Of a DNA stretch of 64,000 nt, positions 33,585-58,919 are shown in pieces (within the stretch, counting starts at the first letter, position 1; each line of letters begins with the position of its first letter). The notes below the pieces were generated by a model. It was not told where the DNA came from. It was given only the letters and a program-made list of their open reading frames with translations, and did no database searches. Made by a program: the position numbers and the translations under genes. This DNA is from Candidatus Omnitrophota bacterium (GTDB lineage: Bacteria > Omnitrophota > Gorgyraeia > 2-01-FULL-45-10), in contig JBAZKM010000006.1 in the NCBI GenBank assembly GCA_041650805.1, forward strand, positions 17,837-81,836, in the 5' to 3' direction.

Positions 33585-33621
33585 ATCATTAACCTCTAAT
33601 AGACATAGGTTAGAGGTTCTA

Positions 33622-33657
33622 GGCTATGATCAGTAACCCTGATCATAGCCTTTTTTA
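33622..33657 (+). terminator. Rho-independent terminator after tRNA-His
   Basis: GGCTATGATCAG-taacc-CTGATCATAGCC 12-bp perfect stem, then TTTTTT. Confidence 0.8.
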
Positions 33658-33887
33658 TCTCTCGATGTCCCTAGGACTTAGGGCATTATTAAATTCCTAG
33701 GAACTTACAAATTTCGGCTTCGGTTTTGTGTGTATATAAACTCGCCTATTCCGCGCCACTATAGACCAAAATCGCCCAATTCCTATCTTATATACTGACG
33801 GCTATATAATGCGAATATCGTCGGTATTTGGAGTATTACTGCGGGGCTGAAAGGTCATTATATAGGACTAGAGACGAGAGGAGAGCT

Positions 33888-35489
33888 TTAGGCGAGCCCT
33901 GCGGTTAATGTCTGCCACATCTTTTTCTGCTTATTCCAGGATATTTCTCTGGTGATCTCATTCATTTTGTATTCGGGGATCAGTTGGATGATGTTATTAT
34001 CTGAAAAGAGAATCTCTTCCTGTATGCTAGGCGCGAGCATCAGCATATTTAGAAGAAGATACATTTTAGTGTGCGTTATATTGAGCCAATCAGCCACCTG
34101 TTTTAAATCTTTAGCCTTGCCGTCTTCAAGTAATCCTTGTATTTGATACGCTAATATTAAAAATTGGCGCAGCTTAGGCTCCTTTAGGATCGCCACAGCT
34201 TTAGGTGTCTCACGTACAAGGCTTGTTGCCAAATCTACATTGAATTCGTAAATTTTAGTAGAGCTTTGCAGTGTTATAAAGACCTTTTTACTCTCGGCTT
34301 CATAAAGTACAACTTTTACTAAGGCGAGAATCGTTTCACGTTGCCTCTCAAATGGCAGGTTCTCCCACGTTCCTGTAGCTATGTTTCTGTTGTCGGAGAT
34401 CTGGCGCAGACACAGCATGATCTGATTCTCGAATCTTAATGCGTTAACGGTCTTTGAAGGGCAATTCTCATAGCCTCGCTTTTGCGCGTTTAAACAAACG
34501 TAGTAAAAGTATTTCCATTTATGATTTTTGGTAGAGTATGCGTATATCATAGAGCTATCGCATGGCTTGCAGCGGACTATTTGGCTTAATAGGCCGATGT
34601 TTTTATGCGGTTTTACTTTTTTCTCGCGTCTATTCTCGTCCAAAATAGTTTGGACCTTATTAAAGACTTCTTCGCTGATTATCGCTTCATGCTGTCCCTG
34701 GTACACCTGCTTGCCTTTGTAGTTAATCTTGCCGATATAGAGCATATTACGCAGCATTAGCTGCATGCTCGTAGCCTTAAATGGAACACCGCCTGACATC
34801 TTACCCTTCCTTAGGTATTGTTTGGTTCGATAACCCCTTTTGTTGAGGATCATGGCTACGGAAAGGAGGGAGCGTTCCTTGGTATAAAGGTCAAACATTT
34901 CTCGGATAATTCGAGCCTCAGCCTCATTGATTACGATCTTATGATTTTCCTTATCGAGGTTATAGCCTAAGGCTGGCCTACCGCCCATCCACTGGCCTTT
35001 CTTGCGCGCAGCGCCCATTTTGTCGCGTGTGCGCTCGGATATGATCTCACGCTCGAACTGTGCGAAAGAGAGCAGAATATTGAGCGTAAGTCGTCCCATT
35101 GACGTATTTGTGTTAAAATGCTGCGTTACGGATACGAAGGCTACGTTATTTTGATCAAAAAATTCCAGCAGCTTACTAAAATCGAGCAATGAGCGCGATA
35201 GTCTGTCTACTTTGTAGACCACCACGCATCCTATTTTCCCAGACTTGATGTCTATTATCAGTTTTTGCAGCGAAGGACGTTCAGTAGTTGCGCCTGAAAA
35301 CCCTGCATCGTCATAGTGATCAGCTAACGTGATCAATCCTTCGGATTTTTGGCTTAGTATATAGCTTTCTGCTGCCTCGCGCTGCGCGTCAAGCGAGGTG
35401 AATTCCTGCTCCATGCCGTCATTCGTAGAAACACGCGTATAGATGGCGCAGGGGATAGGCTTCTTATCTTGTGTTAATTTGTCATCCAT
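33888..35489 (-). CDS. Large serine recombinase (resolvase/invertase N-terminal domain, recombinase domain, zinc-ribbon)
   Basis: Catalytic N-terminus (CAIYTRVSTNDG ... YKVDRLSRSL). 533 aa. C-terminal Cys cluster (CKPCDS...C). Confidence 0.85.
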   Translation of the reverse strand: MDDKLTQDKKPIPCAIYTRVSTNDGMEQEFTSLDAQREAAESYILSQKSEGLITLADHYDDAGFSGATTERPSLQKLIIDIKSGKIGCVVVYKVDRLSRSLLDFSKLLEFFDQNNVAFVSVTQHFNTNTSMGRLTLNILLSFAQFEREIISERTRDKMGAARKKGQWMGGRPALGYNLDKENHKIVINEAEARIIREMFDLYTKERSLLSVAMILNKRGYRTKQYLRKGKMSGGVPFKATSMQLMLRNMLYIGKINYKGKQVYQGQHEAIISEEVFNKVQTILDENRREKKVKPHKNIGLLSQIVRCKPCDSSMIYAYSTKNHKWKYFYYVCLNAQKRGYENCPSKTVNALRFENQIMLCLRQISDNRNIATGTWENLPFERQRETILALVKVVLYEAESKKVFITLQSSTKIYEFNVDLATSLVRETPKAVAILKEPKLRQFLILAYQIQGLLEDGKAKDLKQVADWLNITHTKMYLLLNMLMLAPSIQEEILFSDNNIIQLIPEYKMNEITREISWNKQKKMWQTLTAGLA

Positions 35490-35498
35490 AGTTTTCTC

Positions 35499-35969: not shown

Positions 35970-36111
35970 AGGTATCTACCCTCAGTCATATATAGGCATA
36001 GGTTTCGAGGTATAGCAAGTCATATAGAGAGGTATTTTTGATTGTTAAAAGGGGTCAAAAGTAATATAATAAACTACGAGTTACTACATTTTGTTATAAG
36101 AGAGGGCGATT

Positions 36112-36288
36112 ATGGAAACTTTTACCGTAGAAGATTTAGCGAAATATCTTAAACTGCATACATTCACTGTCCGGCGCCTAGCCAGAGAAGGGAAGATACC
36201 ATCTTTCAAGGCTGGTGGGCAATGGCGGTTCCGCAAAGATGAGATAGAAAATTGGTCTCGAAATAACAGATCAGAAGGAAGTAAATGA
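36112..36288 (+). CDS. Excisionase-family helix-turn-helix DNA-binding protein (58 aa)
   Basis: METFTVEDLAKYLKLHTFTVRRLAREGKIPSFKAGGQWRFRKDEIENW matches the excisionase/MerR-like HTH pattern (…KVGGxWRFRKxDI). Stop overlaps the SNF2 start (ATGA). Not in the ORF track because it is under 60 aa. Confidence 0.7.
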   Translation: METFTVEDLAKYLKLHTFTVRRLAREGKIPSFKAGGQWRFRKDEIENWSRNNRSEGSK

Positions 36289-39227
36289 TCACCGATTATC
36301 ACGCTAAATATTTTGCATATGAATTAACAAAACGATGCGCTTCGGATAGCCTGGAAAAGCTTTCGTCCACGCTTTCTAACGCGCAAGTTGACCTTAATCC
36401 CCATCAAATCGAAGCTGCTCTTTTTGCTTTTCGCTCACCACTCTCAAAAGGCGCAATTCTGGCTGATGAGGTAGGTCTTGGTAAAACCATTGAAGCAGGA
36501 ATCGTTCTGTCTCAGAAATGGGCAGAAAGAAAACGTAAGATATTACTTATTGTTCCATCGAGTTTACGTAAACAGTGGAATGCAGAACTCCAAGAGAAGT
36601 TTTTTCTACCATCGATAATATTAGAAACGAAATCCTTTAATCGATATATTAAGGATGGTAATCTTAACCCCTTTGATCAGAAAGACGTAATAATTATTAG
36701 TTCTTATCATTTTGCACGGGCAAAGGCGTCATATTTAAAACAGACTAAATGGGATCTTGTAGTTATCGATGAAGCGCATCATTTGCGTAATGTCTATAAA
36801 AGTAGCAACAAGATTGCAAGAGAGATAAAAGATGCATTGAGTGAAATACCAAAGGTCTTATTAACAGCTACTCCTCTCCAGAATTCGTTGCTTGAATTGT
36901 ATGGTCTTACCAGCGTTCTTGATGAACATCTCTTTGGTGATTTGAAAAGTTTCAAAGCGAAATATGCTCGCGTTTCGCGTGAACAGGATATTTATGAGAG
37001 CGAATTAGGTTTAGTCGAACCCAAGCAGGAGATGTTTACAGAGCTTAGGAATCGTCTTAAACCGGTATGCACTCGTACATTACGTCGTCAGGTACTAGAG
37101 TATATAAAATATACAAAGCGTATTCCTCTGACACAGGACTATATTCCAACAGAGCAGGAAATCGAACTCTACAATGGTATGTCCGAATATCTGCAGCGCC
37201 CAAGACTCTTTGCATTACCTACAAGCCAGCGTCAATTAATTACACTTGTTTTGCGTAAACTCCTGGCCTCTTCGTCATTCGCTATTGCTAGCACTCTCGA
37301 CAGCTTAGTTTATAAGCTTAAGAGGCTTATAGAAGAAGCTGAGAAGCAGCAAGCTACACAGGAAGAAGGTATCCCTGGGCTTGAACAAAACTTTGAGGAA
37401 TATGACGAGCTATCGGATGAATGGAATGATAACGAAGAGGAGGATGAAGAGAAGGCCGATGAGAAAAAGAAATATACTAAAGAAGATATTGATTTAATGA
37501 AGCAGGAAAAGATCGATCTTGAGAAATTTCGTGAACTGGCTAAGAAGATATGGAAAAACTCAAAGGGGGAAGCCCTGCTTATTGCACTTAAAAAAGGTTT
37601 TGAGATGACGGCAGAGCTTGGGGCACAAAAGAAAGCCGTCATTTTTACAGAATCTACAGTTACCCAAAGTTATCTGTTAAAGTTGCTTTCGGAAAACGGA
37701 TATGAAGGTAAGATAGTTTTATTCAATGGCTCTAATAATGATGCTCGTTCAAAAGAAATCTATCAGGAGTGGATTAAGAAGAACAAAGATACAGATAAAA
37801 TTACGGGCTCTAAAACAGCGGATCTACGTGCGGCCCTAATAGAATACTTTAAAAATGATGCAGAAATAATGATTGCTACTGAAGCGGGTGCTGAGGGCGT
37901 TAATCTACAATTCAGCTCACTAGTTATTAATTATGATTTACCCTGGAACCCTCAAAGAATTGAGCAGCGCATTGGTCGCTGTCATCGATACGGCCAGAAG
38001 CACGATGTTGTGGTAATAAACTTTGTGAATCGAAAGAATGCAGCCGATCAACGTGTATATGAGCTATTGGATCAAAAGTTTAACTTATTCAAGGGTGTAT
38101 TCGGTGCAAGCGATGAGATCCTCGGTAGTATAGAATCTGGGGTAGACTTTGAGAAACGGATCGCAGCTATCTACCAGACTTGTCGAAGTGAAGAAGAAAT
38201 TAACTCTGCTTTTGATTCTCTTCAAGAAGAGATGGATGATAGTATAAAAAATAATCTTAGAGAAACACGCCAAAAACTTTTAGAAAACTTTGACGCAGAA
38301 GTTCATGAAAAACTCAAAGTCAATATTAGAGAAAGCCAGGCTTATCTGGACATTTACGAGCATTGGCTATGGGATACGACAAGACACTATCTTGGTGATG
38401 CTGCAGAGTTTTCAGAGCATGAATATTCTTTCTTACTTAAAAGGAACCCATTCCCTGGAGAAAGTAGCATAGATTCTGGCCCATACAAAATTGGGAAGAA
38501 CATAGAAGATGCACATATATATCGCCCAGGGCATCCTTTGGCACAAAGAATACTTGGCGAGGTCAAAAAAAAAGAATTAGAAGATGCCGAAGTAGTTTTT
38601 GATTACTCCAAGAATTCAACTATAATATCAGTTCTGAAGCCTCTTATAGGAAGATCTGGAATTTTAAAAGTGAGCAATTATACTTTAGAGGCGCTTGAAG
38701 CAGAAGATAGGGTATTGGTAATGGCTTTAGATGATAAGGATGATGTAATTCCTCAGGATGTTGCAAAGAAGCTATTCTCTCTCACTGCTGAATCTATCAT
38801 AGCTAAGAATAGCATTTCTGATGATGGAAATAAGAAATTAGATATACTTGAACAAGAATCTGTAGATCTTATCACTACGCGTTGTGCTGAGCGCAACAGT
38901 GAATTTTTTGACAGTGAAGTCGATAAGTTGGACAGGTGGGCAGATGATATGAAGACAGCCCTTGAATTGGAATTAAAAAAGTTGGATATCGATATCAAAG
39001 CTGCTAAGACATTGGCAAAGAAGAATGTGAATTTGGATGAAAAACTTAAAGCGCAACGCGCAGTCAAAGATATGGAAAAGAAGCGCAACGAGATGCGTAA
39101 AAAACTCTATGAAGCGCAAGATGAAGTCGATAATAGAAAAGAAGATTTGATTGCGCGTGTAGAGTCTCAGCTCAAACAAACAACGAGTTTAACCACGCTT
39201 TTTACAATTCGCTGGAAAGTAATATAA
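36285..39227 (+). CDS. SNF2-family helicase (DEAD/DEAH-box ATPase with helicase C domain)
   Basis: Helicase motifs I LADEVGLGKTIEAG, II DEAHHLRN, III TATPLQN, VI QRIGRCHRYGQ. 980 aa with a long coiled-coil C-terminus. Confidence 0.85.
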   Translation: MITDYHAKYFAYELTKRCASDSLEKLSSTLSNAQVDLNPHQIEAALFAFRSPLSKGAILADEVGLGKTIEAGIVLSQKWAERKRKILLIVPSSLRKQWNAELQEKFFLPSIILETKSFNRYIKDGNLNPFDQKDVIIISSYHFARAKASYLKQTKWDLVVIDEAHHLRNVYKSSNKIAREIKDALSEIPKVLLTATPLQNSLLELYGLTSVLDEHLFGDLKSFKAKYARVSREQDIYESELGLVEPKQEMFTELRNRLKPVCTRTLRRQVLEYIKYTKRIPLTQDYIPTEQEIELYNGMSEYLQRPRLFALPTSQRQLITLVLRKLLASSSFAIASTLDSLVYKLKRLIEEAEKQQATQEEGIPGLEQNFEEYDELSDEWNDNEEEDEEKADEKKKYTKEDIDLMKQEKIDLEKFRELAKKIWKNSKGEALLIALKKGFEMTAELGAQKKAVIFTESTVTQSYLLKLLSENGYEGKIVLFNGSNNDARSKEIYQEWIKKNKDTDKITGSKTADLRAALIEYFKNDAEIMIATEAGAEGVNLQFSSLVINYDLPWNPQRIEQRIGRCHRYGQKHDVVVINFVNRKNAADQRVYELLDQKFNLFKGVFGASDEILGSIESGVDFEKRIAAIYQTCRSEEEINSAFDSLQEEMDDSIKNNLRETRQKLLENFDAEVHEKLKVNIRESQAYLDIYEHWLWDTTRHYLGDAAEFSEHEYSFLLKRNPFPGESSIDSGPYKIGKNIEDAHIYRPGHPLAQRILGEVKKKELEDAEVVFDYSKNSTIISVLKPLIGRSGILKVSNYTLEALEAEDRVLVMALDDKDDVIPQDVAKKLFSLTAESIIAKNSISDDGNKKLDILEQESVDLITTRCAERNSEFFDSEVDKLDRWADDMKTALELELKKLDIDIKAAKTLAKKNVNLDEKLKAQRAVKDMEKKRNEMRKKLYEAQDEVDNRKEDLIARVESQLKQTTSLTTLFTIRWKVI

Positions 39228-39235
39228 GGAGTCCT

Positions 39236-40924
39236 ATGAACGGAAGAAAACAAAAATTAGAATTAACATGGATTGGAAAAGAAGAAGAGTTAAGGCTAGA
39301 GCCTAGAATATTAATTGAAGATCCAAAAAAATCTTATGGAGATCCGAAATCAGAAAACGTACTTATTCATGGCGATAATCTTCTAGCGCTTAAGGCACTA
39401 GAACAAGATTTTGCAGACAAAATTAAGTGTATTTATGTCGATCCACCCTTTAACACCGGAGCAGCTTTTGAGCATTATGATGATAGCATTGAACATTCAA
39501 TTTGGCTTCAGTTAATGCGACATCGCTTGGGGTTGTTACGTAATTTACTTAGAGACGATGGATGTATATTTATTCAGCTTGATGATAGCGAGGCATCTTA
39601 TTGTAAAGTCATGATGGATGAAATATTTGGAAGAAATAATTATCTCAATCAAATTTCCGTATCAACGAATAAGCCATTTGGATACAAAAGTACTGCCGCA
39701 TCATTATTTCAACAAGCGAACCAGTTACTTTTTTATGCAAAAAACAAGGATAGTTTTGTTCTAAACGAAAATAAACTATTTATTGAGCGCGAATACGATA
39801 CACAGTATAAATGGGTATTTGATAATATAACTAAACCTGAAAATCAATGGACTTGGAGAAGCATTAATGAAGTTGTTTCTGAAAAACTTGGTTTTTCTTC
39901 ATATGCAGAGGCCAAGAAAAAAATATCAAAGCAGGAAATTGAAACTGAAATTGCTATATTTGCTTTAAACAATGCTAACAAGGTGTTTAGGACTGCATCC
40001 GTAACGGGTGGGGCATTTCTAAAAAGAAAAGATACAATAAAACTATCAAAAGAAAATAAGGCAAAAATTATTAGACATCCAGGCGACGATATGAACTACA
40101 TATTTATTGGTGGAGAAAGAGTTATTTACTATTCAGAGAGATTAATTGAGATTGAAGGTAACCATGTGCCAGGAGAGCTTATTACAGATATGTGGACGGA
40201 TATATCTGTAGAAGGATTAGCAGCCGAAGGAGGGGTTGATTTTCCAAAAGGTAAAAAACCAGAAAAGTTGATTCAAAGATGTATTGAGCTAACGTCATCC
40301 ATAGGAGATTATGTGCTTGATAGTTTTTTGGGATCTGGCACAACATCTGCTGTCGCTCATAAAATAAATCGTCGTTGGATTGGCATAGAGTTAGGAAGCC
40401 AAGCCAATACTCATTGTTTGCCACGTCTGAAGTCGGTAGTTAATGGCTCGGATCAAAGCGGAATTTCAAAAGCAGTAATTTGGAAGGGCGGTGGCGGGTT
40501 TAAATTTTATGAACTTGCGCCAAGTTTACTTCGCAAAGACCAGCATGGAAACTGGGTTATCGATGAAAAATACAACGCCAATATGTTGGCTGCCGCAATG
40601 TGCAAGCATGAGGGGTTTAAATTCTTTCCCGATGAAACCGTATATTGGAAACAAGGTAAATCTACAGAGACTGATCATATTTTTGTTACAACTTCTTTCG
40701 TAACTGTTGAGCAACTGGATAAAATTCATGAAGAAATGAAACGTGGCGAAAGCCTGCTCATATGCGCAAAGTCATTTGCTCCGCCCTGTAAAGATAGACA
40801 TAATAACATTACAATCAAAAAGATTCCTCAGATGATTTTAGGAAGATGTGAATTCGGTAAAGATAACTACGATTTAAATATCATAAATATGTCTAAGGAT
40901 AGCTCTAAAGAATCCGAGGATTGA
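39236..40924 (+). CDS. mod: DNA methyltransferase (N6-adenine/N4-cytosine, beta-class), type III Mod-like
   Basis: Motif IV YVDPPFNTG precedes motif I DSFLGSGTTSAVA (circularly permuted beta order). A central variable region suggests a target-recognition domain. Confidence 0.8.
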   Translation: MNGRKQKLELTWIGKEEELRLEPRILIEDPKKSYGDPKSENVLIHGDNLLALKALEQDFADKIKCIYVDPPFNTGAAFEHYDDSIEHSIWLQLMRHRLGLLRNLLRDDGCIFIQLDDSEASYCKVMMDEIFGRNNYLNQISVSTNKPFGYKSTAASLFQQANQLLFYAKNKDSFVLNENKLFIEREYDTQYKWVFDNITKPENQWTWRSINEVVSEKLGFSSYAEAKKKISKQEIETEIAIFALNNANKVFRTASVTGGAFLKRKDTIKLSKENKAKIIRHPGDDMNYIFIGGERVIYYSERLIEIEGNHVPGELITDMWTDISVEGLAAEGGVDFPKGKKPEKLIQRCIELTSSIGDYVLDSFLGSGTTSAVAHKINRRWIGIELGSQANTHCLPRLKSVVNGSDQSGISKAVIWKGGGGFKFYELAPSLLRKDQHGNWVIDEKYNANMLAAAMCKHEGFKFFPDETVYWKQGKSTETDHIFVTTSFVTVEQLDKIHEEMKRGESLLICAKSFAPPCKDRHNNITIKKIPQMILGRCEFGKDNYDLNIINMSKDSSKESED

Positions 40925-40925
40925 T

Positions 40926-44771: not shown

Positions 44772-44783
44772 GTGAATTAAACA

Positions 44784-48257: not shown

Positions 48258-48358
48258 GAATTTTTTTTGTCTAGTGGGTTATACGCTGTGTAACATGGTA
48301 TGTATAAGGTATACCTATCTTATACTCACCATATAACAACAAAATCTAAAAAAAGGGG

Positions 48359-48541: not shown

Positions 48542-48609
48542 CAGAGATTGATCGGCCCCGGGCGTCTATATTCCCGGGGCTGGTCAGCATAACATTAAAG
48601 GAGGTAGCA

Positions 48610-48939
48610 ATGTCACATTATTTCTTATGTGGATTGGAGTACAAGTGGGACTTGATTAGAGAAACATCCTCTAGCCAAAAGTTTATTGTTGATGTTGGCG
48701 ATTATTGGGGACTTAAAGCCACGTTCGATATCCATTACACAAAGCCTGAAATAGCGTATGTAACCGTATGTCTTATCGGGCCAAAGGAGTATTTTACTGA
48801 TGGGCTAAGCCATTGGTTGTTTGCTGATTTAGAAAAAATAATCGAAAAGCACGGTGACTATGGCGTCATAGATTATGCTCTCGTTTTCAGTGATCATTTG
48901 TGTAATGGAAATTACAGTATGGAGTCATTTTCAGCATAA
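48610..48939 (+). CDS. Hypothetical protein (109 aa)
   Basis: GGAGG RBS 7 nt upstream of ATG 48610. The long ORF-track start at 48487 is probably an upstream extension. Confidence 0.4.
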   Translation: MSHYFLCGLEYKWDLIRETSSSQKFIVDVGDYWGLKATFDIHYTKPEIAYVTVCLIGPKEYFTDGLSHWLFADLEKIIEKHGDYGVIDYALVFSDHLCNGNYSMESFSA

Positions 48940-48952
48940 AAAGGAGGACAAA

Positions 48953-50907: not shown

Positions 50908-52522
50908 TCTATTTAATGATACATATTCTGTGATGCGTAAGGCAGGGGAGAAATCTATATATGCTTTTGCTAAGTATTTCATGCCGGAACATTTAAAGTA
51001 CCCACCTTCCCGGGCCCACCATGAGATATATGACTTGCTTCAGGAAATTACTCAGAAGCGTAACTGTAAGCTCGCCATAGCAGCGCCTAGAGATTTTGGT
51101 AAGTCGACTCTAATTACCCTCATCTATGTAATTTACACTATCTGCTATGCAAAAGAAAAGTTTATCGTGATATTAAGCAATACCTCATCGCAGGCAAAGC
51201 AGATTCTTGAGAACATCAGAAAGGAGCTAACCGAGAATGAGCGCTTGAAGGCTGCTTTTCCTAATATATTCGAGGCAGATGGCAGGCCTAAGCCACCGCG
51301 CTGGAGACAGGATGATATTATCACCAGAAATGGAGTTGAAATATTAGCTTTAGGTAGTGGCCAGCAGATCAGAGGAAGAAGATATGGCTCTGCCAGGCCT
51401 ACGCTTATTGTCGCTGATGACGTGGAAAGCCCTGAGAATACATTCTCATCTGAATCAAGAGACAAGCTAAAGGATTGGTTTAGTAAGTCGGTATTGCGAG
51501 CAGGCTCGGAATCAACCAATATCCTATATATAGGTAATTTGTACCACCCATACTGCCTTTTGAGCGAATATGTTAACCCCGAACTAAACCCGGGGTGGGT
51601 AAGTAAGGTTTATAAGGCACTTATTGCCTGGCCTACTCGCATAGATCTCTGGGAGAAGTGGCGTAATATCTATAACAACCGTGAGAAGGTCGACAATATA
51701 AGCGGTATAGAGGCAGCGCTAAAGTATTATCAGGCTAATACGCAGGCTATGGATGAAGGAGCTGTGCTTCTTTGGCCTGAGCGTCACTCGCTGCATAATC
51801 TCATGATTGCACGTGAGGAGAACGAGATTTCCTTCATGAGCGAGCTAATGAACAGCCCACTTGACTCGAAGCTATGTATCTTTAATGCCGATGATCTTCA
51901 CTATTGGGACGGCATATACCATAGCGTTGAGAATCTACTACATGCTTTGGGTGATAATGCGGAATTTTATGGAGCGTGCGATCCGTCTCTAGGGGGTCAA
52001 AACTTTAAAGGTGATTACTCGGCAATTGTTATTGTGGTTCGAGACAAACGAGATGGTATTTTGTACGTTATCGAAGCGGATATCAAGCGCCGGACTCCAA
52101 CCGAGACAATAGATGACATCCTGGCCTATTGCCAGCGTTATAAATTCGTACGTTTCGCAGTTGAAATAAATCAGTTTCAGAAGATGTTGTATGACCAGCT
52201 CGTTGAGAGCGCAAGAAAGCAGAGCAAGTATGCACCATTTGAGCAAGTGACTAACACAAGCGACAAGGTAAAGCGCATACAAGCGTTGCAGCCGTTAGTG
52301 AAGAATGGTACGATCAAATTCGCTAAGTTCTTAAGGCTTTTGCTTGAGCAGATGAGATACTTTCCAAAAGGAAAGTATGATGACGGATTAGATGCGCTTG
52401 AGATGGCCGTACAGGTAGCTGCGGAGAAACCAAGGACGATAACTATGACAATAGTTGGAGGTGACAGAGACGATTGGTATGGCGACTACCATAGAAATCT
52501 TGGGTGGCCAAAAATATTCTAA
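50897..52522 (+). CDS. Phage terminase large subunit
   Basis: Walker A AAPRDFGKST and Walker B LIVADDVE ATPase motifs. C-terminal nuclease-like region. 541 aa. Confidence 0.75.
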   Translation: MTNNLFNDTYSVMRKAGEKSIYAFAKYFMPEHLKYPPSRAHHEIYDLLQEITQKRNCKLAIAAPRDFGKSTLITLIYVIYTICYAKEKFIVILSNTSSQAKQILENIRKELTENERLKAAFPNIFEADGRPKPPRWRQDDIITRNGVEILALGSGQQIRGRRYGSARPTLIVADDVESPENTFSSESRDKLKDWFSKSVLRAGSESTNILYIGNLYHPYCLLSEYVNPELNPGWVSKVYKALIAWPTRIDLWEKWRNIYNNREKVDNISGIEAALKYYQANTQAMDEGAVLLWPERHSLHNLMIAREENEISFMSELMNSPLDSKLCIFNADDLHYWDGIYHSVENLLHALGDNAEFYGACDPSLGGQNFKGDYSAIVIVVRDKRDGILYVIEADIKRRTPTETIDDILAYCQRYKFVRFAVEINQFQKMLYDQLVESARKQSKYAPFEQVTNTSDKVKRIQALQPLVKNGTIKFAKFLRLLLEQMRYFPKGKYDDGLDALEMAVQVAAEKPRTITMTIVGGDRDDWYGDYHRNLGWPKIF

Positions 52523-52534
52523 GCCACGAAAAAT

Positions 52535-52563
52535 ATTGACAAATGATACAAGCGTGGTATACT
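52535..52563 (+). promoter_or_regulatory. Candidate sigma70 promoter
   Basis: TTGACA, 16-nt spacer, then TATACT. Confidence 0.35.
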
Positions 52564-52871
52564 TATATCCACAGATAGAAGTCGTCCCGATGTTGGAAGG
52601 GGTAAATCCCGGACGTTAAAAAAGAAAAACCTTCGAGTGGGTAAGTATGCCACCGAGGGTTTTTGTGTTTTATAAGACATATACGGCTTGTAGTTTAAGC
52701 CGATAACATAATTTCACAAGTTTTTGCACCTGGCGGATTGTTTCAATGGACAGTTTCATTTGTAGTAGCAGTCCTGTGTTTCAAGGGGGAACCTGGACTT
52801 TAAAAAAGTAAAACCTTCGCTAGCCATAATTTTGTGGCTGGCGGAGGTTTTTCTATTTTGAGGAGGGCGAT

Positions 52872-53330
52872 ATGGGAAGAATAGCAGGCATAACATTAGT
52901 TATGGTATTAGCTTGTTCATTAGCTTTTGCCGAAGAAAAGTATTTGGGAAGATTAAGTACAAACAAGATTGCCTCAGATTCTACAAGTAATCCTGTTGGT
53001 CAATACGGCAGCACTGTATCGCCAACTAGTATAAATAATCCTGTAGGCCAATTTGGAAGCTCTGTAAGCCCGAATAGCGCCCGTAATTCGCTTGCTACAG
53101 ATACACCTAAGCTATATAGTCAGGATGGGCACTATTTAGGTAAGGTGAGCAGTAATACGCTAGATCCAGACTCGATAAGTAATCCTGTGGGAAGATATGG
53201 CAGTTCCGTATCTCCCGATAGCGTACATAATCCAGTAGGTCGTTATGGAAGCAGCGTCAGTTCTGAAAGCGCTAATAACCCATTAGCTACTAACGCACCG
53301 AAGATAATCTATGGAGGAAATGATGAGTAA
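52872..53330 (+). CDS. Secreted repeat protein (4 x S-NPVGxYGSSVSP-S units)
   Basis: Signal peptide, then four ~30-aa repeats with core NPVG(Q/R)YGS(T/S)VSP. Confidence 0.55.
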   Translation: MGRIAGITLVMVLACSLAFAEEKYLGRLSTNKIASDSTSNPVGQYGSTVSPTSINNPVGQFGSSVSPNSARNSLATDTPKLYSQDGHYLGKVSSNTLDPDSISNPVGRYGSSVSPDSVHNPVGRYGSSVSSESANNPLATNAPKIIYGGNDE

Positions 53331-54300
53331 AAGTAAAGACGTGTATATGAAGATAATGGCGTTGGTTGTATTGGGGGTCATGGTTGCAGTTCCGATGTAT
53401 GCTCAAAACGCTGCAATCGATCAGGAGTTAGACGCGATTTATCAAAAAGCGTCGCATGCAATTGCCGAAAACAACATTGAGAAATCAGATTTTTATCTTG
53501 CTCGATATATGGGCCTCGCATTTACCAATGAAGATTCAAAGCATGGCTATAACGATCTAATTCCGCTATTTAAGCAGAGGAAAGATTTGGCCGGGTCAAC
53601 CGCATTCATATCAGGTCAGTATACCGATGAATTCTTAGACTTCTATTTTCGCGCGCCGGGTTTAATGTGGAGCATTCCAGATGAAGGAGTCGATGAGAAC
53701 ACTCTTGAGTTTGAGGTAAACGCTAGTTCTGATGGCAAATATTTCGCATCGCTTGTTATTTCACCACGCCTTGAGACTTGGTCGGTAATAAAAAAAGATA
53801 TCATGATTTCCGTAGTGCCTCTGGGCTCTAGTGTAAAACAGCCACGCATTGTTTCAGGCATTCTGAAGGACAATAAACCCTTAAGGCGGTTTCCGATAGT
53901 TGACCTTAATACTGATGATCACTTTTTGCATTATGTATGGCCTATTGAATTTTATGATTTGGATGGTGATGGTATCCCCGAAATATGGCTACGATATAAT
54001 CTCGCATGGGCGGATGGTTTTTCTCAGCGCCTTGATATTTATAAGATCATAAACGATAGCAAGCTAGTGTTATTGAAACGATTTGAGGGGGAAGCTGAAG
54101 GTATTGCGCGAAGACTGCCTGATAATAAAGTTGAAGTCGGATATGGGTTTTCTGATAAACCTGGCGGGCATTTGTACTTTGACCAATACCATTTTGATAT
54201 ATTTGAATATAAAAATGGAGATTTTGTGAAGGCCTCCGAAAGGAACGAGCCCCACATACTGAGAAGCGATAGCTGGCATAAATATTATGGCTTTGATTAA
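53311..54300 (+). CDS. Secreted hypothetical protein
   Basis: N-terminal signal peptide (VLGVMVAVPMYAQNA); 329 aa. Confidence 0.5.
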   Translation: MEEMMSKSKDVYMKIMALVVLGVMVAVPMYAQNAAIDQELDAIYQKASHAIAENNIEKSDFYLARYMGLAFTNEDSKHGYNDLIPLFKQRKDLAGSTAFISGQYTDEFLDFYFRAPGLMWSIPDEGVDENTLEFEVNASSDGKYFASLVISPRLETWSVIKKDIMISVVPLGSSVKQPRIVSGILKDNKPLRRFPIVDLNTDDHFLHYVWPIEFYDLDGDGIPEIWLRYNLAWADGFSQRLDIYKIINDSKLVLLKRFEGEAEGIARRLPDNKVEVGYGFSDKPGGHLYFDQYHFDIFEYKNGDFVKASERNEPHILRSDSWHKYYGFD

Positions 54301-54319
54301 ACGGAGGAAAGGAAACAAT

Positions 54320-55339
54320 ATGCGTAATGTATTATTGATTTTAATAATTGTAAGCTGTATCGCGTCAAACTCATTTGCTAGTGGCATGAGTAGTATGGAG
54401 AAAGGGATCATTAGGCTTGAATATATAGGTAGGCAAGTTCAAGCAATAGAGAATGAACTGCGCTTATACTACATGGCTAAAATTGAGGACCGCCCTGACG
54501 TTGAGCCTGTTGATGATGTTAACCAATTAATTAAATTAAAGCAGGAACTAAGTGCGCTGGATTTGCCTCAAGAAATCGCCGATTTAAAACCAGACCTATT
54601 AGGGGTTATTGATAAGTTAATAGATAATTGTAATGGCATTCTAAAGAAGGATGAGAAAGCGCGAGACAAAGAATTTGATGATTTTTGGAAGGAGGTAGGC
54701 GCTTTTAATGACAAGCTGAAGTCGAAAATTGATAAGTACCTATCTATCCCGGAGCTCGGCATAGATTTTAGTTTGGCAAATGAAGAAACGCGGCTTTTTA
54801 CTGATAGCAAAGACCAGACTGCATTTAAGCAGGCACTATCATATATTGACAAGAAAAAATATCAAGATGCTGTTAAGATCTTGGAGCCTCTTTTAAGCAA
54901 ATATAAAAACAAGCCTGCCGAAGGCAGTATCATTGTTAGAATTGCTGATTGTTATATTGTTAAGGATAGCCCTTTGAGCCAGCGTGGAGGCAATGAAGAA
55001 TATCTAATAGGCCTTCTGATCGATTTTATCAATCGAAAACAATATACTCCACAGATTCAACGCATTTATCTACAGTGGCGTACGCTAGAGCAATCTTATA
55101 ACAACGGTGCTTCGAACTGGTCGACTATGCCAAACGATCATTATAACGAAGTACTATTGGGGGTGGCTGAGGCTATCGAGAGACATATAGACCAGCACCC
55201 AGATGATTATTGGGCAAAATATCAGCTATTATTGCTTATGGATACCCCAATAATCGAAAGGTGGGGTAGGGGTTATCAATATGGTAATACAATGGCCCTA
55301 GACTATGCATTCTTAAATGGAATGCTTAACAAGGAGTGA
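54320..55339 (+). CDS. Secreted hypothetical protein
   Basis: GGAGG RBS before ATG 54320. Signal peptide LLILIIVSCIASNSFASG. Confidence 0.5.
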   Translation: MRNVLLILIIVSCIASNSFASGMSSMEKGIIRLEYIGRQVQAIENELRLYYMAKIEDRPDVEPVDDVNQLIKLKQELSALDLPQEIADLKPDLLGVIDKLIDNCNGILKKDEKARDKEFDDFWKEVGAFNDKLKSKIDKYLSIPELGIDFSLANEETRLFTDSKDQTAFKQALSYIDKKKYQDAVKILEPLLSKYKNKPAEGSIIVRIADCYIVKDSPLSQRGGNEEYLIGLLIDFINRKQYTPQIQRIYLQWRTLEQSYNNGASNWSTMPNDHYNEVLLGVAEAIERHIDQHPDDYWAKYQLLLLMDTPIIERWGRGYQYGNTMALDYAFLNGMLNKE

Positions 55340-55346
55340 GTGAACA

Positions 55347-56114
55347 ATGCCTATATTAAGAAAGATGTGCGCTGCTATGGCTTTAGCGAGTCTGTTGATT
55401 TGTGCAGAGGTTTATGCAGCGTCTGTTAGTGTTAAAGACGGCAACATTTTTTATATTAATAATGGAAAGAGCATGCAAATCACATCAAGTAATCATGATA
55501 ATAACCCTATGCTACATCCAGATGGCAGGTGGATATACTTCATTCGTGGCTCTGAAGGTAAATGGGTTGGGGAAAAGTTCTATCCACGCGAAGGGGCAGT
55601 AGTTAAAGATGGGTTACTTCATGATGAGCTCTGGCGCGTTAAAACTGATGGTACCGGCGCAATTATGTTGTTTCGCTCAGAGCACGCAGCTATTGACGGT
55701 CCGGATCCAGACTACTCTGTTGCGCATATAAATAGTATGCAGCTTTCACCAGATGGCGATAAGGTATATTTCGAAGCCTCTGAGTGGGTGACATCAGATG
55801 CTTTATATGTAATGAACGCAGACGGTTCAAATGCAAAGATGTTAGGCCCTGGTAATGATACAAAGATAATTTTATCAGCTAGAACATTCGATGATCGAGA
55901 GAGTGACTATAAGGGGTACATTATCACAAATCAACACAGATATTTCCTATACGGTGGTTCTTATGATTGGTATTATTTGTTCACGCCTGACCTAAAAAAA
56001 GAAATAGCGCCTTTGGGAGATGATTTTGATTATTTTACAGAAATGGGTGATATAATATATACAGATCATAGTGAAAAGACCATTCAAAGAAGCGAAAAGA
56101 TAAAGGGCTTATGA
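55347..56114 (+). CDS. Secreted TolB-like beta-propeller (PD40-repeat) protein
   Basis: Signal peptide. Repeated DG(R/D)xxYF / SPDGDKVYF / MNADGSNAKML motifs typical of PD40 repeats. Confidence 0.5.
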   Translation: MPILRKMCAAMALASLLICAEVYAASVSVKDGNIFYINNGKSMQITSSNHDNNPMLHPDGRWIYFIRGSEGKWVGEKFYPREGAVVKDGLLHDELWRVKTDGTGAIMLFRSEHAAIDGPDPDYSVAHINSMQLSPDGDKVYFEASEWVTSDALYVMNADGSNAKMLGPGNDTKIILSARTFDDRESDYKGYIITNQHRYFLYGGSYDWYYLFTPDLKKEIAPLGDDFDYFTEMGDIIYTDHSEKTIQRSEKIKGL

Positions 56115-56584
56115 AAGAATATTGTCACTATCGGATGATTCTTTTAAATAGAAAAATATCATTCCTAGAATACAAAACCAAGGGCGAGGCATTTGCTAAA
56201 ACCGAAACATTTCTACGGCCAGTTACATCCAAAAGCTTACCCAAGATTTATATTATAAAAAATCGCGGTGAAATCATATATATAGGGATTGCGTCACAAA
56301 GCATTGCAAACCGGCTGCGTTATGGGTTTAGTGCTAAGGGGAGAGGTGGATACCACGGATATCGATGGAGGGATTTAGTCGATAAAATTGATCTTCTGGT
56401 GTGGTGTTTTCCAGGCCAATCTATGCATTATGTAGAATCGATTGAAGCAGAAATAGTTTTTGCATTGCGTCGCGATACTGGTAAATGGCCAGCATTTCAG
56501 ACAGAGATCCATTTTCATAATGTGACAGATGAAGAAAAGAAGCTGGCTTCTTCAATTTATAGTGAAGCGTCCAAAACTGCGTAG
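56111..56584 (+). CDS. Hypothetical protein with a GIY-YIG-like motif
   Basis: KIYIIKNRGEIIYIGIASQSIANRLRYGF resembles the GIY...YIG...R core. Weak. Confidence 0.35.
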   Translation: MKEYCHYRMILLNRKISFLEYKTKGEAFAKTETFLRPVTSKSLPKIYIIKNRGEIIYIGIASQSIANRLRYGFSAKGRGGYHGYRWRDLVDKIDLLVWCFPGQSMHYVESIEAEIVFALRRDTGKWPAFQTEIHFHNVTDEEKKLASSIYSEASKTA

Positions 56585-56592
56585 AAAATCTT

Positions 56593-57609
56593 ATGCTAAC
56601 CGACAATATATTCAAGTTGCTAAAGAAAGTAAGCAAAGACGAAGATCAGCTTTCCGCGGCTTTTGGTTTTTTGCTTAAAGAGGATAGTGAGATTCTGCGT
56701 CATTTCTTAAGCAAATTAGGGATTCAGCTTAATAAACAGGAACTAAAAAGAGTTGATATCGAAACGCTAGTTCCATATGTGTTTAAATCAAAAACTAGTA
56801 TTATTGATCTCCAGTTAGAGATACCGGGCAAATATCTTATTTTTCTTGAGTCGAAAATAGTTCCAACCAAGACCGAGAGAATCATAGCTCAAATTAAGCC
56901 TTATAACGATATTCTCAGGCATAAAGAAGATGGGTACGAAGGCGGTACGCACTTAGTATATGTGGCGAAGGATTCGATAGATAAGCGGCAAATAGATAGC
57001 ATACAAAGAAGCTTGTGTAGAAGCGCTAATGAATTTGAATTCTTTTCATGGGAAAATCTGTTAGCGCTAGTGGTGAGTTGTAAAAGAAAAAATAGGCGAC
57101 TAATAGAATTATTTAGTGATTACATAGGAGACGCTATGCATAGTAAAAAAGTTATAAATGAGCAAAAAATCAAAAACATATCAGACGTTCTCGTCGTATT
57201 TACAAATCCCGCATTCTGGCAAATGACTCTCCAAAGAAATATAGTAGTGCAAAGCCGAAGTGGTCCTGATGCTCGCTACATAGCATTCCTTAGAACGCAT
57301 TTACCTCGGGAAAGAAGCGGGATTACACATATAGCCGAAGTTGATTATACAGAATTAAGGCCAAGAAATGAGATGTTTGAAAAGGTAGACAAGGAAACAA
57401 GGTGTCAACTCGAGCAGCATATGAAAGCTCGAGATATCGATCTTGAAGGCCTACACAAAGCTTATATCCTAAAGCCAGGCTCATTAAAAAAGCTGCATCA
57501 TAAAATTGATCATTACGGATCGGGGCCAATGGTTAAGTTTAGCGCAAAGATGGGTGACTTACTATGCGCGAAAACCACCAAAGATATCAAAAAAGGTAAA
57601 AAAGTATAA
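56593..57609 (+). CDS. Hypothetical protein with a PD-(D/E)xK-like nuclease motif
   Basis: SIIDLQLEIPGKYLIFLESKIV fits the D...E-x-K pattern. Confidence 0.35.
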   Translation: MLTDNIFKLLKKVSKDEDQLSAAFGFLLKEDSEILRHFLSKLGIQLNKQELKRVDIETLVPYVFKSKTSIIDLQLEIPGKYLIFLESKIVPTKTERIIAQIKPYNDILRHKEDGYEGGTHLVYVAKDSIDKRQIDSIQRSLCRSANEFEFFSWENLLALVVSCKRKNRRLIELFSDYIGDAMHSKKVINEQKIKNISDVLVVFTNPAFWQMTLQRNIVVQSRSGPDARYIAFLRTHLPRERSGITHIAEVDYTELRPRNEMFEKVDKETRCQLEQHMKARDIDLEGLHKAYILKPGSLKKLHHKIDHYGSGPMVKFSAKMGDLLCAKTTKDIKKGKKV

Positions 57610-57615
57610 ATTCCT

Positions 57616-58695
57616 ATGTCGATGAATAAAATAGCATGTTTCATAGCTATGGCTTTCGACCATCCTGATACAGACAAAATCTACGATAGTATTTTGTTAC
57701 CCATGTTAAAAAGCAAGAATATTGCTGCTCGAAGGATTGATCGCATACAGCATAATGATGATATTACTACTCGAATTATAGAAGAAATTAATTCTGCAGA
57801 CTTTTGTATTGCAGACTTAACATTCGCGCGACCAAGCGTGTATTATGAGGCTGGGTATGCAGAGAGAGGCATACCCGTTATCTATATTATGCGAAAAGAT
57901 CATTTTAAGCATAAGCCGGAGGATGAGCACGGTAATTTTAGAGCGCATTTTGACGTACAGGTAAAGAATATTATACCGTGGGTTAGTTACAATGACGCTG
58001 TCTTTAAAAAGAAGCTCAGGAAAAGAATAGAATACATAATGAGGCCCATTGAGAAGATGCGGAAAGAAATAGCAGTTCTAGATAACGAAAAACTTCATTT
58101 TGCTTCTTTATCGTTATTCGAAAAAGTTCAATATTGTAAGACAGAATTAGAAAGTTATTTTAGGAAATATAAATTTCATAAGTTTCCTAGAGAAAGGGAA
58201 GGGGATAGGCATAGTACTAGAGAAGAGAAAAGAGATGCGCAGTATTTAGTCAAAGGGCAAACTGGTTTTTATTCCGATAATCTGGTTTTTTGGAAACCAT
58301 CCAAAAGTATTCTTCGCAATATTGGGTCTCACTATACCTACTGGTTTGGTGTAGGGAGTATTTATAAAACAATCCTAGAGAAATGCAGGAAGAATATCAC
58401 TGGTCTCATATATTTTAGTGTAATAGTTTCTCCTAACAAGGTTTTAGCTAGTAGTATCGCAGAAGCCCTGAGTGGATATAGAAATGCAGCCTATAAAGAT
58501 CTAAAGTACTTTTTTGTTGATGTTCGTAAAGAGCCGATCGAAATATCGAAAAATAAGACAGTCAAACTGAAAATAACCTCTCTATTCATTGTAATAGATA
58601 ATGTTCAGTCCAAGCGAGATTTATCGCTAAAATATAACCAAATATTTGATTTTGTTGTTGATCAATCCGATAGGCTATTATCGAGAAGGTATTAG
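57616..58695 (+). CDS. Nucleoside 2-deoxyribosyltransferase-like / TIR-like (SLOG-type) domain protein with unknown C-terminal domain
   Basis: N-terminal CFIAMAFDHP...ADFCIADLTFARPSVYYEAGYAERGIPVIYI matches the PF05014-like pattern (DLS...NV.fElGyA...KPvi). Confidence 0.4.
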   Translation: MSMNKIACFIAMAFDHPDTDKIYDSILLPMLKSKNIAARRIDRIQHNDDITTRIIEEINSADFCIADLTFARPSVYYEAGYAERGIPVIYIMRKDHFKHKPEDEHGNFRAHFDVQVKNIIPWVSYNDAVFKKKLRKRIEYIMRPIEKMRKEIAVLDNEKLHFASLSLFEKVQYCKTELESYFRKYKFHKFPREREGDRHSTREEKRDAQYLVKGQTGFYSDNLVFWKPSKSILRNIGSHYTYWFGVGSIYKTILEKCRKNITGLIYFSVIVSPNKVLASSIAEALSGYRNAAYKDLKYFFVDVRKEPIEISKNKTVKLKITSLFIVIDNVQSKRDLSLKYNQIFDFVVDQSDRLLSRRY

Positions 58696-58919
58696 TATGT
58701 TGAAATGTCCACCTATTTGAAGAGGACATTAGCTATCAATTTGTATCTAAAAGAGTTGCATCATTCCTGGACAAAAAAGACAGGACAAATCGGACATTTT
58801 TCATAGGGACCATACTATGAGAATAGCGGAATTTCATTGATAACAAGGGTATTTCGGCTATAATAGATACTTGAGGATTTACATAGGTCTGTCCCCAGGT
58901 GAGAAGGGGAGCGACCCCA

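Follow-up and report, generated by a model that had tools for sequence, protein, structure and literature searches.

What is a complete phage packaging enzyme doing in a genomic island that has no capsid genes? The question is raised by a stretch of 64,000 nt from a Candidatus Omnitrophota bacterium (GCA_041650805.1, contig JBAZKM010000006.1, forward-strand positions 17,837-81,836; hereafter the window), in which an earlier note had described an AT-rich mobile island with defence genes and 'prophage remnants'. Omnitrophota are abundant, largely uncultivated and often ultra-small bacteria, and to our knowledge almost nothing has been reported on their mobile elements and phages. We find that positions 33585-58919 are a single integrated copy of a 25.3-kb modular mobile element, which adjoins a tRNA-His gene at its 3' end (Table 1). 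The island belongs to a widespread and apparently undescribed family whose members combine anti-phage genes with a complete packaging enzyme, but lack capsid genes; the literature that we searched held no description of this family.

Table 1. Features of the island and its borders (window coordinates)
Feature	Position	Strand	Basis
tRNA-His (GTG), integration target	33507..33584	+	ARAGORN, Rfam
Conserved non-coding left end (P' arm side)	33585..33887	.	76-81% nucleotide identity to ends of L074, L076, L079-L081
Large serine recombinase (integrase), 533 aa	33888..35489	-	Pfam Resolvase, Recombinase, Zn_ribbon_recom
DUF2924 protein, 156 aa	35499..35969	-	Pfam 4.5e-35
Promoter-like site (36042-70) and 58-aa HTH_17 gene (excisionase/AlpA-type), opening the cargo operon	36042..36288	+	Promoter scan, Pfam
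Cargo 1a: SNF2 helicase (DrmD-like), type III Mod methyltransferase, type III Res with TnsA-like nuclease end	36285..43601	+	PADLOC, Pfam
Cargo 1b: TcmP (PDC-M30A), small radical SAM protein, TIGR04141/DUF6119 protein	43665..47136	+	NCBIfam, PADLOC, Pfam
Three small element-specific genes (181 aa; MerR-like, 140 aa; 150 aa)	47189..48939	+	Weak or no Pfam, PHROG, NCBIfam matches
ParB-N/DNA methyltransferase fusion, trio gene 1	48875..50224	+	Pfam N6_N4_Mtase and ParB_N; PHROG 498 1.5e-113
228-aa HTH and long-helix protein, small-terminase position	50221..50907	+	Cluster C2
Large terminase (TerL), 541 aa, apparently intact	50897..52522	+	PHROG 38 1e-105; Pfam Terminase_6C
Promoter, then two tandem RNA-like motif copies, each with terminator; leader of cargo 2	52536..52860	+	Promoter/terminator scan
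Cargo 2 block	52872..58695	+	Pfam, PADLOC, translations
Conserved right end (P arm)	58740..58919	+	80% identical to L087 20716-20896
Host side of attR: hairpin repeat copy C and truncated small GIY-YIG gene	58920..59135	+	Repeat family D1/D4/D8, sequence reading

Borders and composition

The island was acquired horizontally and integrated site-specifically beside tRNA-His, and it combines the usual signs of a tRNA-integrated genomic island: it lies at a tRNA, its composition deviates, an integrase gene marks its border, and its content varies among relatives. The G+C fraction is 0.545 at 1-31.3 kb, 0.51 at 31.8-33.5 kb, 0.38-0.43 at 33.6-58.9 kb and 0.46 at 59.1-64 kb, the drop falling exactly after the tRNA (33584) and the rise after 58919. 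Tetranucleotide usage correlates at 0.72-0.81 among island segments but only at 0.33-0.47 between the island and the left flank; both flanks are close to L003, the closest Omnitrophota relative (0.82-0.87 and 0.85). The sharp switch in composition that had been proposed is confirmed by these computed profiles.

Comparison with related elements allowed us to fix both ends. The conserved block on the left, shared with five related islands, starts from 33578; the one on the right stops at 58919/58920, where homology to L087 breaks off exactly after GACCCCAT; the borders given previously, 33585 and 58919, are thus right within a few bases. The att core that the earlier note had suggested looking for does exist, but is only 6 bp long: ACCCCA, the last six nucleotides of tRNA-His (33579-33584), is common to attL, formed by the tRNA 3' end, and to attR, where it lies at 58914-58919. 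It is the only sequence common to both junctions, and no longer repeat between the ends was found. So short a core is expected for a serine recombinase, since serine-integrase att sites share a few identical bases at the crossover without long direct repeats.

The tRNA-His and terminator said to mark the left border were both found, the terminator having a 13-bp stem (33621-33651, terminator scan) and following a hairpin at 33593-33617. The right end contains an outward promoter (58837-58864, 11 of 12 matches in a promoter scan) and a hairpin (58891-58908). Just beyond lie the two features by which the right border had been described: repeat copy C (58905/58920-59070), 92% identical to copy A (31824-31989), and a GIY-YIG reading frame without its N-terminus. 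We infer that this segment is the original sequence downstream of tRNA-His; it was absent from every related island locus compared. No empty site was found, the predicted attB joint being CGCCTACCCCA joined to TCCGCCTTCG. When IMG/VR was scanned for the recombinase, for TerL and for the attP joint expected from the two ends (GAGCGACCCCA joined to ATCATTAACC), nothing close was returned, and no circular or encapsidated form was seen.

A conserved backbone

The family backbone is made of the serine recombinase/DUF2924/HTH_17 module, a ParB-methyltransferase/HTH protein/TerL trio and the conserved non-coding right end. The recombinase has the domains of a large serine recombinase, namely a resolvase domain with the nucleophilic serine (1e-38; YTRVST motif in the translation), a recombinase domain (2e-18) and a zinc ribbon (2e-9). 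Its sequence matches in the PDB are the TP901-1, A118 and SPbeta integrases, and its homologues in related islands are 84-86% identical. DUF2924 always partners this recombinase clade, and adjoins the recombinase in L074, L076, L079, L092, L094, L097, L102 and L147. The HTH_17 gene (Pfam 1.4e-15) follows a promoter-like site with 10 of 12 matches, and a gene of the same family occupies the same position in L076 and L079. The recombinase, small partner and 58-aa HTH gene had all been named correctly from the outset. Our guess is that the HTH_17 protein, the DUF2924 protein or both are candidate directionality factors.

The ParB-methyltransferase fusion was found upstream of TerL in 37 related loci. 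The gene of the 228-aa protein overlaps its neighbours at both ends, and in all 32 loci of its cluster it lies between the methyltransferase and TerL. This protein has an N-terminal LuxR/GerE-type HTH (profile search against the PDB) and an all-helical model; searches of PHROG, Pfam, NCBIfam, the PDB and folds gave no match to a terminase family or fold. Therefore, while the ParB-methyltransferase and large terminase of the earlier note stand, its 'small terminase' is supported by neither profile nor fold searches. The Walker A, Walker B and nuclease motifs are intact in the TerL translation, and TerL dN/dS is 0.042 (against L083). The block is thus under strong purifying selection. TerLs of the trio are monophyletic and form a separate deep clade.

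Relatives of the island

The suggested comparison with related genomes revealed kindred elements, one of them at the same tRNA-His, whose cargo is quite unlike that of the island; among relatives the backbone is kept and only the cargo differs. In GCA_028711865.1, the syntenic flank QueC/E/F-fumarase-RNase PH-Ham1-tRNA-Pro-tRNA-Arg-tRNA-His is followed by a related island that carries CBASS and other genes. Its backbone genes are 82-85% identical to ours, against 47-64% for host genes. Backbone dN is 0.09-0.11, far below that of syntenic host genes (0.32-0.56), which shows that the backbone has passed between Omnitrophota hosts that are only distant relatives.

Homologues of the recombinase and TerL occur together on at least 10 contigs. 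The complete trio was found in 37 metagenome loci, with a serine recombinase within 10 kb in 13 of them. In the 19 loci informative for what follows TerL (at least 3 kb downstream), head genes were found 3' of it in none, whereas the same scan of control Mu-like phage loci detected Portal_Mu, Mu_F, protease and capsid genes in 14 of 20. In L076 and L079, remains of decayed element ends and a piece of the 3' part of tRNA-His adjoin the recombinase, indicating that the tRNA-His site has been used repeatedly.

Cargo genes and a leader RNA

Cargo varies greatly across the family and includes many restriction and defence domains. In the present island it fills two variable slots, the first holding anti-phage systems and the second signal-bearing proteins and nucleases. 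PADLOC and Pfam/NCBIfam matches bear out the restriction-modification/defence operon noticed earlier. Mod lies beside a Res helicase-nuclease, as in type III restriction-modification (PADLOC MTase_III 4e-173, REase_III 3e-192), and cargo 1b scores with TIGR04474 (NCBIfam, 4.7e-67), TIGR04141 (2e-83) and PDC-M30A (PADLOC, 2e-73). The SNF2 helicase scores as DrmD (1e-209). We considered and rejected DISARM, which needs DrmA, DrmB and DrmC (or DrmE) plus a methylase and DrmD: only the DrmD-like helicase is present, and the best scores of its partners are those of type III Mod and Res. A tblastn search of related islands gave no match to the three small genes preceding the trio.

The second slot opens with a leader that has a promoter (11 of 12 matches), a terminator and an RNA-like motif. 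An alignment of 10 copies from 8 elements contains compensatory pairs; the motif recurs 3' of TerL in at least seven family members and matched no Rfam family. Four of the cargo 2 proteins have signal-like N-termini, and one of these four contains PD40 repeats; the others are a GIY-YIG protein, a PD-(D/E)XK protein and a protein of 359 aa whose N-terminus is weakly TIR-like (weak PADLOC match). That this block is secreted, as had been proposed, is plausible solely from N-terminal hydrophobic segments read in the translations. No homologues of cargo 2 were found in the corresponding block of L087. Capsid, portal and tail families were found in no island ORF, in line with the initial reading, and no primase, replicase, Rep or helicase-primase family was recognised in any of them.

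Comparison with known systems

Like PICIs, the element is a site-specific island in the 10-30 kb range with an integrase at one end, an AlpA/excisionase-type HTH gene, accessory and defence cargo and terminase gene(s), without tail or lysis genes. It differs in its integrase, a large serine recombinase paired with DUF2924, in having a full-length large terminase and a ParB-methylase with no primase-replicase or capsid-size gene found, and in its hosts, which belong to Omnitrophota and to further uncultivated phyla. The SatelliteFinder definition of PICIs would exclude it (PMC10085698). PICIs have a primase-replicase module, of which no family is present here. They also have a small terminase and/or a capsid morphogenesis gene; a candidate for such a gene is that of the 228-aa protein, which lies in the position of TerS and has an N-terminal HTH and long helices, with no match to a terminase family or fold. 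Capsid-forming PICIs (cfPICIs) are satellites that encode both TerS and TerL, but they also encode the major capsid protein, portal, protease and head-tail connectors (PMC10085698); these head genes are absent here and in 19 of 19 related loci.

The PLEs of Vibrio cholerae are likewise satellites that integrate through a large serine recombinase and protect their host from phage. They differ in having their own replication initiator and capsid-remodelling genes and in integrating at integron repeats; they are not known to have terminase genes or to occur outside Vibrio. In sequence, the comparison with PLEs covered the recombinase superfamily. Tycheposons and phage defence elements resemble the island in their use of tRNA 3' ends, their modular backbone with swappable cargo and the tandem decay products at the site. 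However, the recombinases of tycheposons are mostly of the tyrosine type, replication genes are part of their content, and PICI-like tycheposons carry a capsid gene or TerS, not TerL (bioRxiv 10.1101/2020.12.28.424599). The nearest cultured relatives of the island's TerL are those of Mu-like transposable phages (FP_Mushu, D3112, B3 group), which share the family PHROG 38, headful-type packaging enzymes (35-37% identity to FP_Mushu and D3112). Unlike these phages, the island has a site-specific serine recombinase and no transposase. It also lacks the portal, Mu F, protease and capsid genes that follow TerL in a functional Mu-like prophage, as well as tail and lysis genes.

Does the island package itself?

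With a packaging enzyme but no capsid genes, members of this family are probably carried inside capsids that other phages make. On balance we favour a recombinase-integrated island with anti-phage cargo whose own terminase would package it into helper-phage capsids. The serine recombinase would integrate the circular element by recombining attP with attB within ACCCCA, leaving tRNA-His intact, and would excise it again with the aid of a directionality factor (possibly HTH_17 and/or DUF2924). Once excised, or perhaps while still in the chromosome, as happens in Mu-like headful packaging, the element's own DNA would be recognised by the HTH protein and TerL and packaged into procapsids that a co-infecting helper phage provides, and the ParB-methylase may modify the packaged DNA. 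The element would thus be a satellite of phages that rewards its host by bringing defence genes, the better of the two readings offered initially.

More tentatively, the family might be a new class of phage satellites, common in Omnitrophota and neighbouring uncultivated phyla, with a serine integrase and a complete, lineage-specific terminase (ParB-methylase, DNA-binding subunit and TerL) but no capsid or replication genes. Such satellites would hijack only empty helper procapsids, possibly by Mu-like headful packaging from the chromosome, and serve as a two-slot defence shuttle whose second slot is under a new structured RNA leader. This would be a testable satellite strategy, in which the parasite supplies the whole packaging motor and no shell. 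The island also shows that a terminase found without a capsid in a genome is not to be scored automatically as prophage decay. The conserved and easily recognised backbone can serve as a marker for defence cargo in Omnitrophota and neighbouring phyla, and the family's serine integrases, a natural set whose attB is defined at tRNA-His, are possible tools for genome engineering.

Could the trio itself be a weapon? In an integrative defence island it would act against phages, competing for or mis-cutting DNA at packaging, or serve in other DNA processing, and transfer would occur otherwise. The cargo consists mostly of defence systems, interference with helper terminases by satellites and prophages is on record, and the island, without an encapsidated form in the IMG/VR scans, has no recognised replication module, while most known satellites have a replication gene. 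However, the trio is not among PADLOC's systems, it keeps a fixed position alongside two different serine recombinase clades, as a mobility backbone would and swappable cargo would not, and it is constant across the family, unlike the real defence cargo. We regard this alternative as unlikely, though serious.

A tandem insertion of at least two elements, recombinase to TerL (33.6-52.5 kb) and a separate low-G+C block (52.5-58.9 kb), seems distinctly improbable. The island of GCA_028711865.1 seemingly ends directly after TerL, without the conserved right end, so that even on the favoured reading cargo 2 may be an accretion and not a constant component. A promoter and a leader of its own precede the second block, and tandem decay products occur at the site in other genomes. 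Yet in L087, too, some 9 kb of cargo, unrelated to that of the island, separates TerL from the same conserved 180-nt right end, the leader follows TerL in at least seven family members, and the second block contains neither a recombinase nor a second att-like joint.

That the island is a degraded prophage, a temperate Mu-like phage whose integrase and terminase are decaying after deletion of its head, tail and lysis genes, would explain the missing structural genes and the Mu-like family of TerL. We consider it very improbable, and the 'prophage remnants' of the earlier note do not hold up: the trio is a conserved backbone, TerL is intact and constrained (dN/dS 0.04) within a deep clade of its own, the backbone is far better conserved than host genes, and the layout without capsid genes recurs in all 19 informative loci, whereas related phage TerLs precede portal and capsid genes.

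Finally, a chimeric contig joining organisms of 55% and 40% G+C at conserved tRNA or repeat sequences, conceivable for a metagenome-assembled genome whose composition switches just where a tRNA and the repeats A, B and C lie, has a negligible probability: both flanks resemble one Omnitrophota lineage, a relative joins the same left flank to a related island, and both junctions are crossed at 100% identity by Logan contigs from independent assembly of the same sample, L002 spanning window positions 31957-35214 and L170 positions 52783-58982.

Borders and attachment sites

No direct or inverted repeat longer than chance was found between the island ends that could serve as att sites, and the borders were set by comparison with related elements instead. 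Nucleotide homology among the islands begins at 33578, within the last bases of tRNA-His, and ends at 36026; this left block comprises a 300-nt non-coding stretch, the recombinase and DUF2924. At the right end, positions 58740-58920 match 20716-20896 of L087, one of the loci fetched for comparison, with 80% identity, and divergence starts directly past GACCCCAT. L079, another such locus, and L087 jointly rebuild one island with the layout seen in the window. This comparison upholds the extent proposed in the earlier note, 33585-58919, and the search for an attL/attR core suggested there turned up a 6-nt match near both ends. A short core without a longer end-to-end repeat is what is expected of a serine integrase, and tRNA-His is kept intact because the crossover falls in bases identical in both partners. 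At 59153-59161, 55 nt upstream of an MscS-type channel gene, GGGACCCCA occurs a second time, with AT behind it, and resembles the att core; about one chance match of this kind is expected per window, and this one may be meaningless.

Features of the island, its relatives and its host flanks (a slash marks the junction in att sequences)
Feature	Sequence	Position	Details
tRNA-His	window	33507-33584	integration site
Terminator	window	33621-33651	13-bp stem, 3' of tRNA-His
attL	window		…GTCGCCTACCCCA/ATCATT…
attR	window		…GGAGCGACCCCA/TCCGCC…
Shared att core	window	33579-33584 and 58914-58919	ACCCCA
Predicted attP joint			…GGGGAGCGACCCCA/ATCATTAACCTCT…
Predicted empty attB			…GGTCGCCTACCCCA/TCCGCCTTCGCATT…
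Leader promoter, motif and terminator	window	52536-52860	
Leader motif	L085	11949-12033	
Leader motif	L087	11681-11724	
Leader motif	L089	10803-10900	
Leader motif	L094	2802-2852	
Leader motif	L096	8035-8346	
Leader motif	L098	9849-9936	
Leader motif	L120	2700-2749	
Leader motif	L134	12994-13083	
Hairpin/GIY-YIG copy A	window	31839-32242	
Hairpin/GIY-YIG copy B	window	33441-33488	
Hairpin/GIY-YIG copy C	window	58920-59135	

At the right end, a hairpin precedes GCGACCCCA, which looks like a degenerate tRNA 3' half; ARAGORN detected no tRNA across the reconstructed attP joint. It also holds an outward promoter-like site (58837-58864, TTGATA-16-TATAAT, 11 of 12 matches) that is kept in L087. When the element is integrated, this promoter would read into the host flank, through the hairpin of repeat copy C and then MscS; in the circular state it would cross attP to the left-end terminator and give an RNA of about 125 nt.

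Joints resembling attP, in which the GCGACCCCA core is followed by the left-end hairpins and terminator of the family without a tRNA, occur on two metagenomic contigs: Ga0209515_10002892 (L092, at about 1080-1200) and Ga0247841_10004076 (L147, at about 70-200). At 25,349 and 25,719 nt in total, both are close in length to the window island (25,335 nt), and they could represent circular excised forms or else tandem copies. Scanning IMG/VR with the recombinase gave one distant match and nothing close, and scans with the left-end motif, the predicted attP joint and TerL gave zero matches each; no circular or encapsidated copy of the island was found in these four scans.

Composition and integrity of the island

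The sharp switch in composition claimed in the earlier note is borne out by both G+C and tetranucleotide profiles, which set the island apart from both flanks. In 1-kb steps, G+C ranges over 0.50-0.60 in the first 34 kb, 0.35-0.46 between 34 and 59 kb, and 0.44-0.50 beyond; by segment, it is 0.545 in the left flank, 0.38-0.43 in three island segments and 0.46 in the right flank. After correction of tetranucleotide usage for base composition, the island segments correlate at 0.72-0.81 among themselves and at 0.33-0.47 with the left flank, and L003, the closest available Omnitrophota relative, correlates at 0.82-0.87 with the left flank and at 0.85 with the right. The two host flanks (1-31300 and 59100-64000) differ in G+C, yet both resemble this same relative in their tetranucleotides.

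Two independent Logan contigs, L002 (window 31957-35214) and L170 (52783-58982), span both junctions at 100% identity, so the break in composition does not come from a chimeric assembly. Exact-protein look-ups found matches only on short Logan contigs of sample SRR8542065. In the right flank, Thi4, Rrf2 and CysH share 82-95% identity and synteny with Omnitrophota metagenome-assembled genomes. A search of 185,579 genomes anchored on this Thi4 recovered the Thi4-Rrf2-CysH synteny and no empty site, because nothing upstream of Thi4 is common to the relatives. That the region is an integrative island we regard as very probable.

Relatives at the same site

Close homologues of the recombinase number in the hundreds, and many are labelled Omnitrophota. 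In three fetched contexts (L074, L076 and L079), DUF2924 and the recombinase form the same divergent pair, and the cargo operon begins with a small gene; this gene encodes an HTH_17 protein in two of the three and, in L074, a 74-aa protein with no family match. Their cargo is wholly different, L074 carrying HATPase, Dam and SAVED-SMODS (CBASS), and L076 and L079 carrying UvrD, PD-(D/E)XK, a methylase and a Res-type enzyme. As for the window's own defence genes, DISARM was rejected, since DrmA, DrmB and DrmC are absent.

The comparison with L074 (GCA_028711865.1) is decisive; there, the same tRNA-His holds a related island with different cargo. Its flank is syntenic with the left flank of the window (QueC, QueE, QueF, fumarase, RNase PH, Ham1, tRNA-Pro, tRNA-Arg and tRNA-His). 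These host proteins are 47-64% identical, against 82-85% for the recombinase, DUF2924, the 228-aa HTH protein and TerL, and dN is 0.32-0.56 for host genes and only 0.09-0.11 for the backbone. Horizontal exchange of the backbone hence took place long after the split of the hosts, and it led to the same tRNA-His. In GCA_028711865.1, cargo is followed by the ParB-methylase, the 228-aa protein (at 82% identity) and TerL (at 85%); past TerL, G+C returns to that of the host and host-type genes such as FUR and AhpC take over, so that this island seems to end directly after TerL. In L087 the same trio of genes precedes 9 kb of unrelated cargo and the conserved right end.

L076/L077 (13033-13200, 15076-15240 and 19029-19294) and L079 (11913-13348) contain fragments of island left and right ends with a 25-nt piece of the tRNA-His 3' end. 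These lie in the stretch that separates the recombinase from the true tRNA-His or from host genes, and are a graveyard of earlier insertions at this site.

The terminase block as backbone

The earlier note read the terminase genes as those of a degraded prophage or a satellite-like element. TerL and recombinase homologues share a contig in at least 10 cases, with contigs matched by size. We then scanned metagenomes with a TerL alignment, which yielded 80 loci whose ORFs were clustered and representatives named with Pfam. In 37 of these, the methylase and/or the 228-aa protein lies immediately upstream of TerL, and in 13 of the 37 a serine recombinase lies no more than 10 kb away, either of the DUF2924-paired type upstream or of a 615-680-aa type directly after TerL. 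This latter variant (L104, L111, L113, L119, L121, L122, L125, L128 and L135) places the recombinase in the same orientation as the trio and lacks DUF2924.

Nineteen trio loci extend 3 kb or more past TerL, and a head gene is present in none of them; a head-gene cluster is absent from all 37 at any position. Of 20 non-trio loci that reach equally far, 14 carry head genes directly after TerL (Portal_Mu, Mu F, Mu protease and gpT, or Phage_portal, S78 protease and capsid). When 73 TerLs were placed in a neighbour-joining tree, those of trio loci formed one clade and every phage-context TerL fell outside it. The window TerL has a dN/dS of 0.042 and, in translation, retains Walker A (AAPRDFGKST), Walker B (LIVADDVE) and the nuclease motifs. 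The terminase block is thus backbone, not debris. Its closest cultured relatives are TerLs of Mu-like phages (35-37% identity); a Mu-like prophage was rejected, as trio loci lack head genes and their TerLs form a clade of their own. Among 113 cargo proteins from 13 trio loci, no family occurs in more than two loci, and restriction/defence domains are common.

The genes named in the earlier note are all present, with one exception in labelling: 'small terminase' for the 228-aa protein rested on position only. Pfam, PHROG, NCBIfam and PADLOC gave no match, hhalign against the Mu-like DUF1804 gave a probability of 3%, and a PDB profile search matched the HTH and nothing else. Foldseek with its AlphaFold2 model (pLDDT 75) returned no match with E <0.27.

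A possible mode of transfer

Site-specific insertion at tRNA-His, a two-part conserved backbone, horizontal spread, selection on TerL and the family-wide absence of capsid genes are established by these comparisons. Among known systems, the closest functional parallel is a phage satellite of the kind that diverts packaging. The serine integrase would carry out attP x attB integration, and excision would involve the integrase with a directionality factor, for which the HTH_17 and DUF2924 proteins are candidates. The 228-aa protein and TerL would load element DNA into procapsids of a helper, and the methylase may shield the packaged DNA. Candidate locations for a pac site are the conserved ends and the stretch after TerL. 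Such satellite-type transfer is a tentative proposal, to which we give slightly less than even chances.

PICIs are defined by a primase-replicase, which the island lacks (no replication gene was found in it), cfPICIs by capsid genes, also lacking, and the content of PLEs is unrelated. The terminases described in papers on satellites, VEIMEs and tycheposons are small terminases, or TerL accompanied by capsids, and this combination appears in none of these papers; full-text literature searches found no published description of the architecture.

A leader element downstream of TerL

After TerL comes a near-consensus promoter (52536-52563) and then a conserved motif in two tandem copies. Each copy has a short stem, P1, in which compensatory changes are seen, as well as an inner hairpin (P2) and the invariant UUAAAAAAG(A/U)AAAACC, which runs into a terminator. 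We found this motif in at least seven family members and one IMG/VR contig, mostly downstream of TerL and upstream of unrelated cargo genes; it is in tandem in the window and L096. No Rfam family corresponds to it. It is a candidate for a new cis-regulatory RNA or small RNA, and the leader probably gates the second cargo block, between TerL and the right end.

Other elements of the host flanks

A small element distinct from the island has shaped the host side of the insertion site: it joins a near-perfect hairpin of 150 nt (-96.5 kcal/mol, z -9.25) to a small GIY-YIG gene downstream. The hairpin has no Rfam family and no copy in the 169 fetched loci. Copy A directly follows the CCA end of tRNA-Arg, copy B is a left-arm fragment before tRNA-His, and copy C, after the island, is truncated, its GIY-YIG frame lacking the N-terminus; 58905-59070 at copy C is 92% identical to 31824-31989 at copy A. 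The unit looks like a small selfish element aimed at tRNA ends. Around fragment B, the tRNA-His leader and first 17 nt are duplicated (33404-33440 and 33485-33521, 86% identity), perhaps as a scar of repair or through an earlier insertion. The upstream copy and the stop codon of an OmpA-LysM gene overlap.

Beside the insertion site, 59213-60066 holds a short MscS-type gene, which stops within the beta domain after 167 aa, and behind it a lysine-rich ORF of 107 aa; the channel gene may be truncated or split. Further upstream in the window, a tmRNA gene (24076-24487, Rfam 169 bits) has an ARAGORN-predicted tag peptide that is unusually long and ends in a motif other than the usual LAA type.
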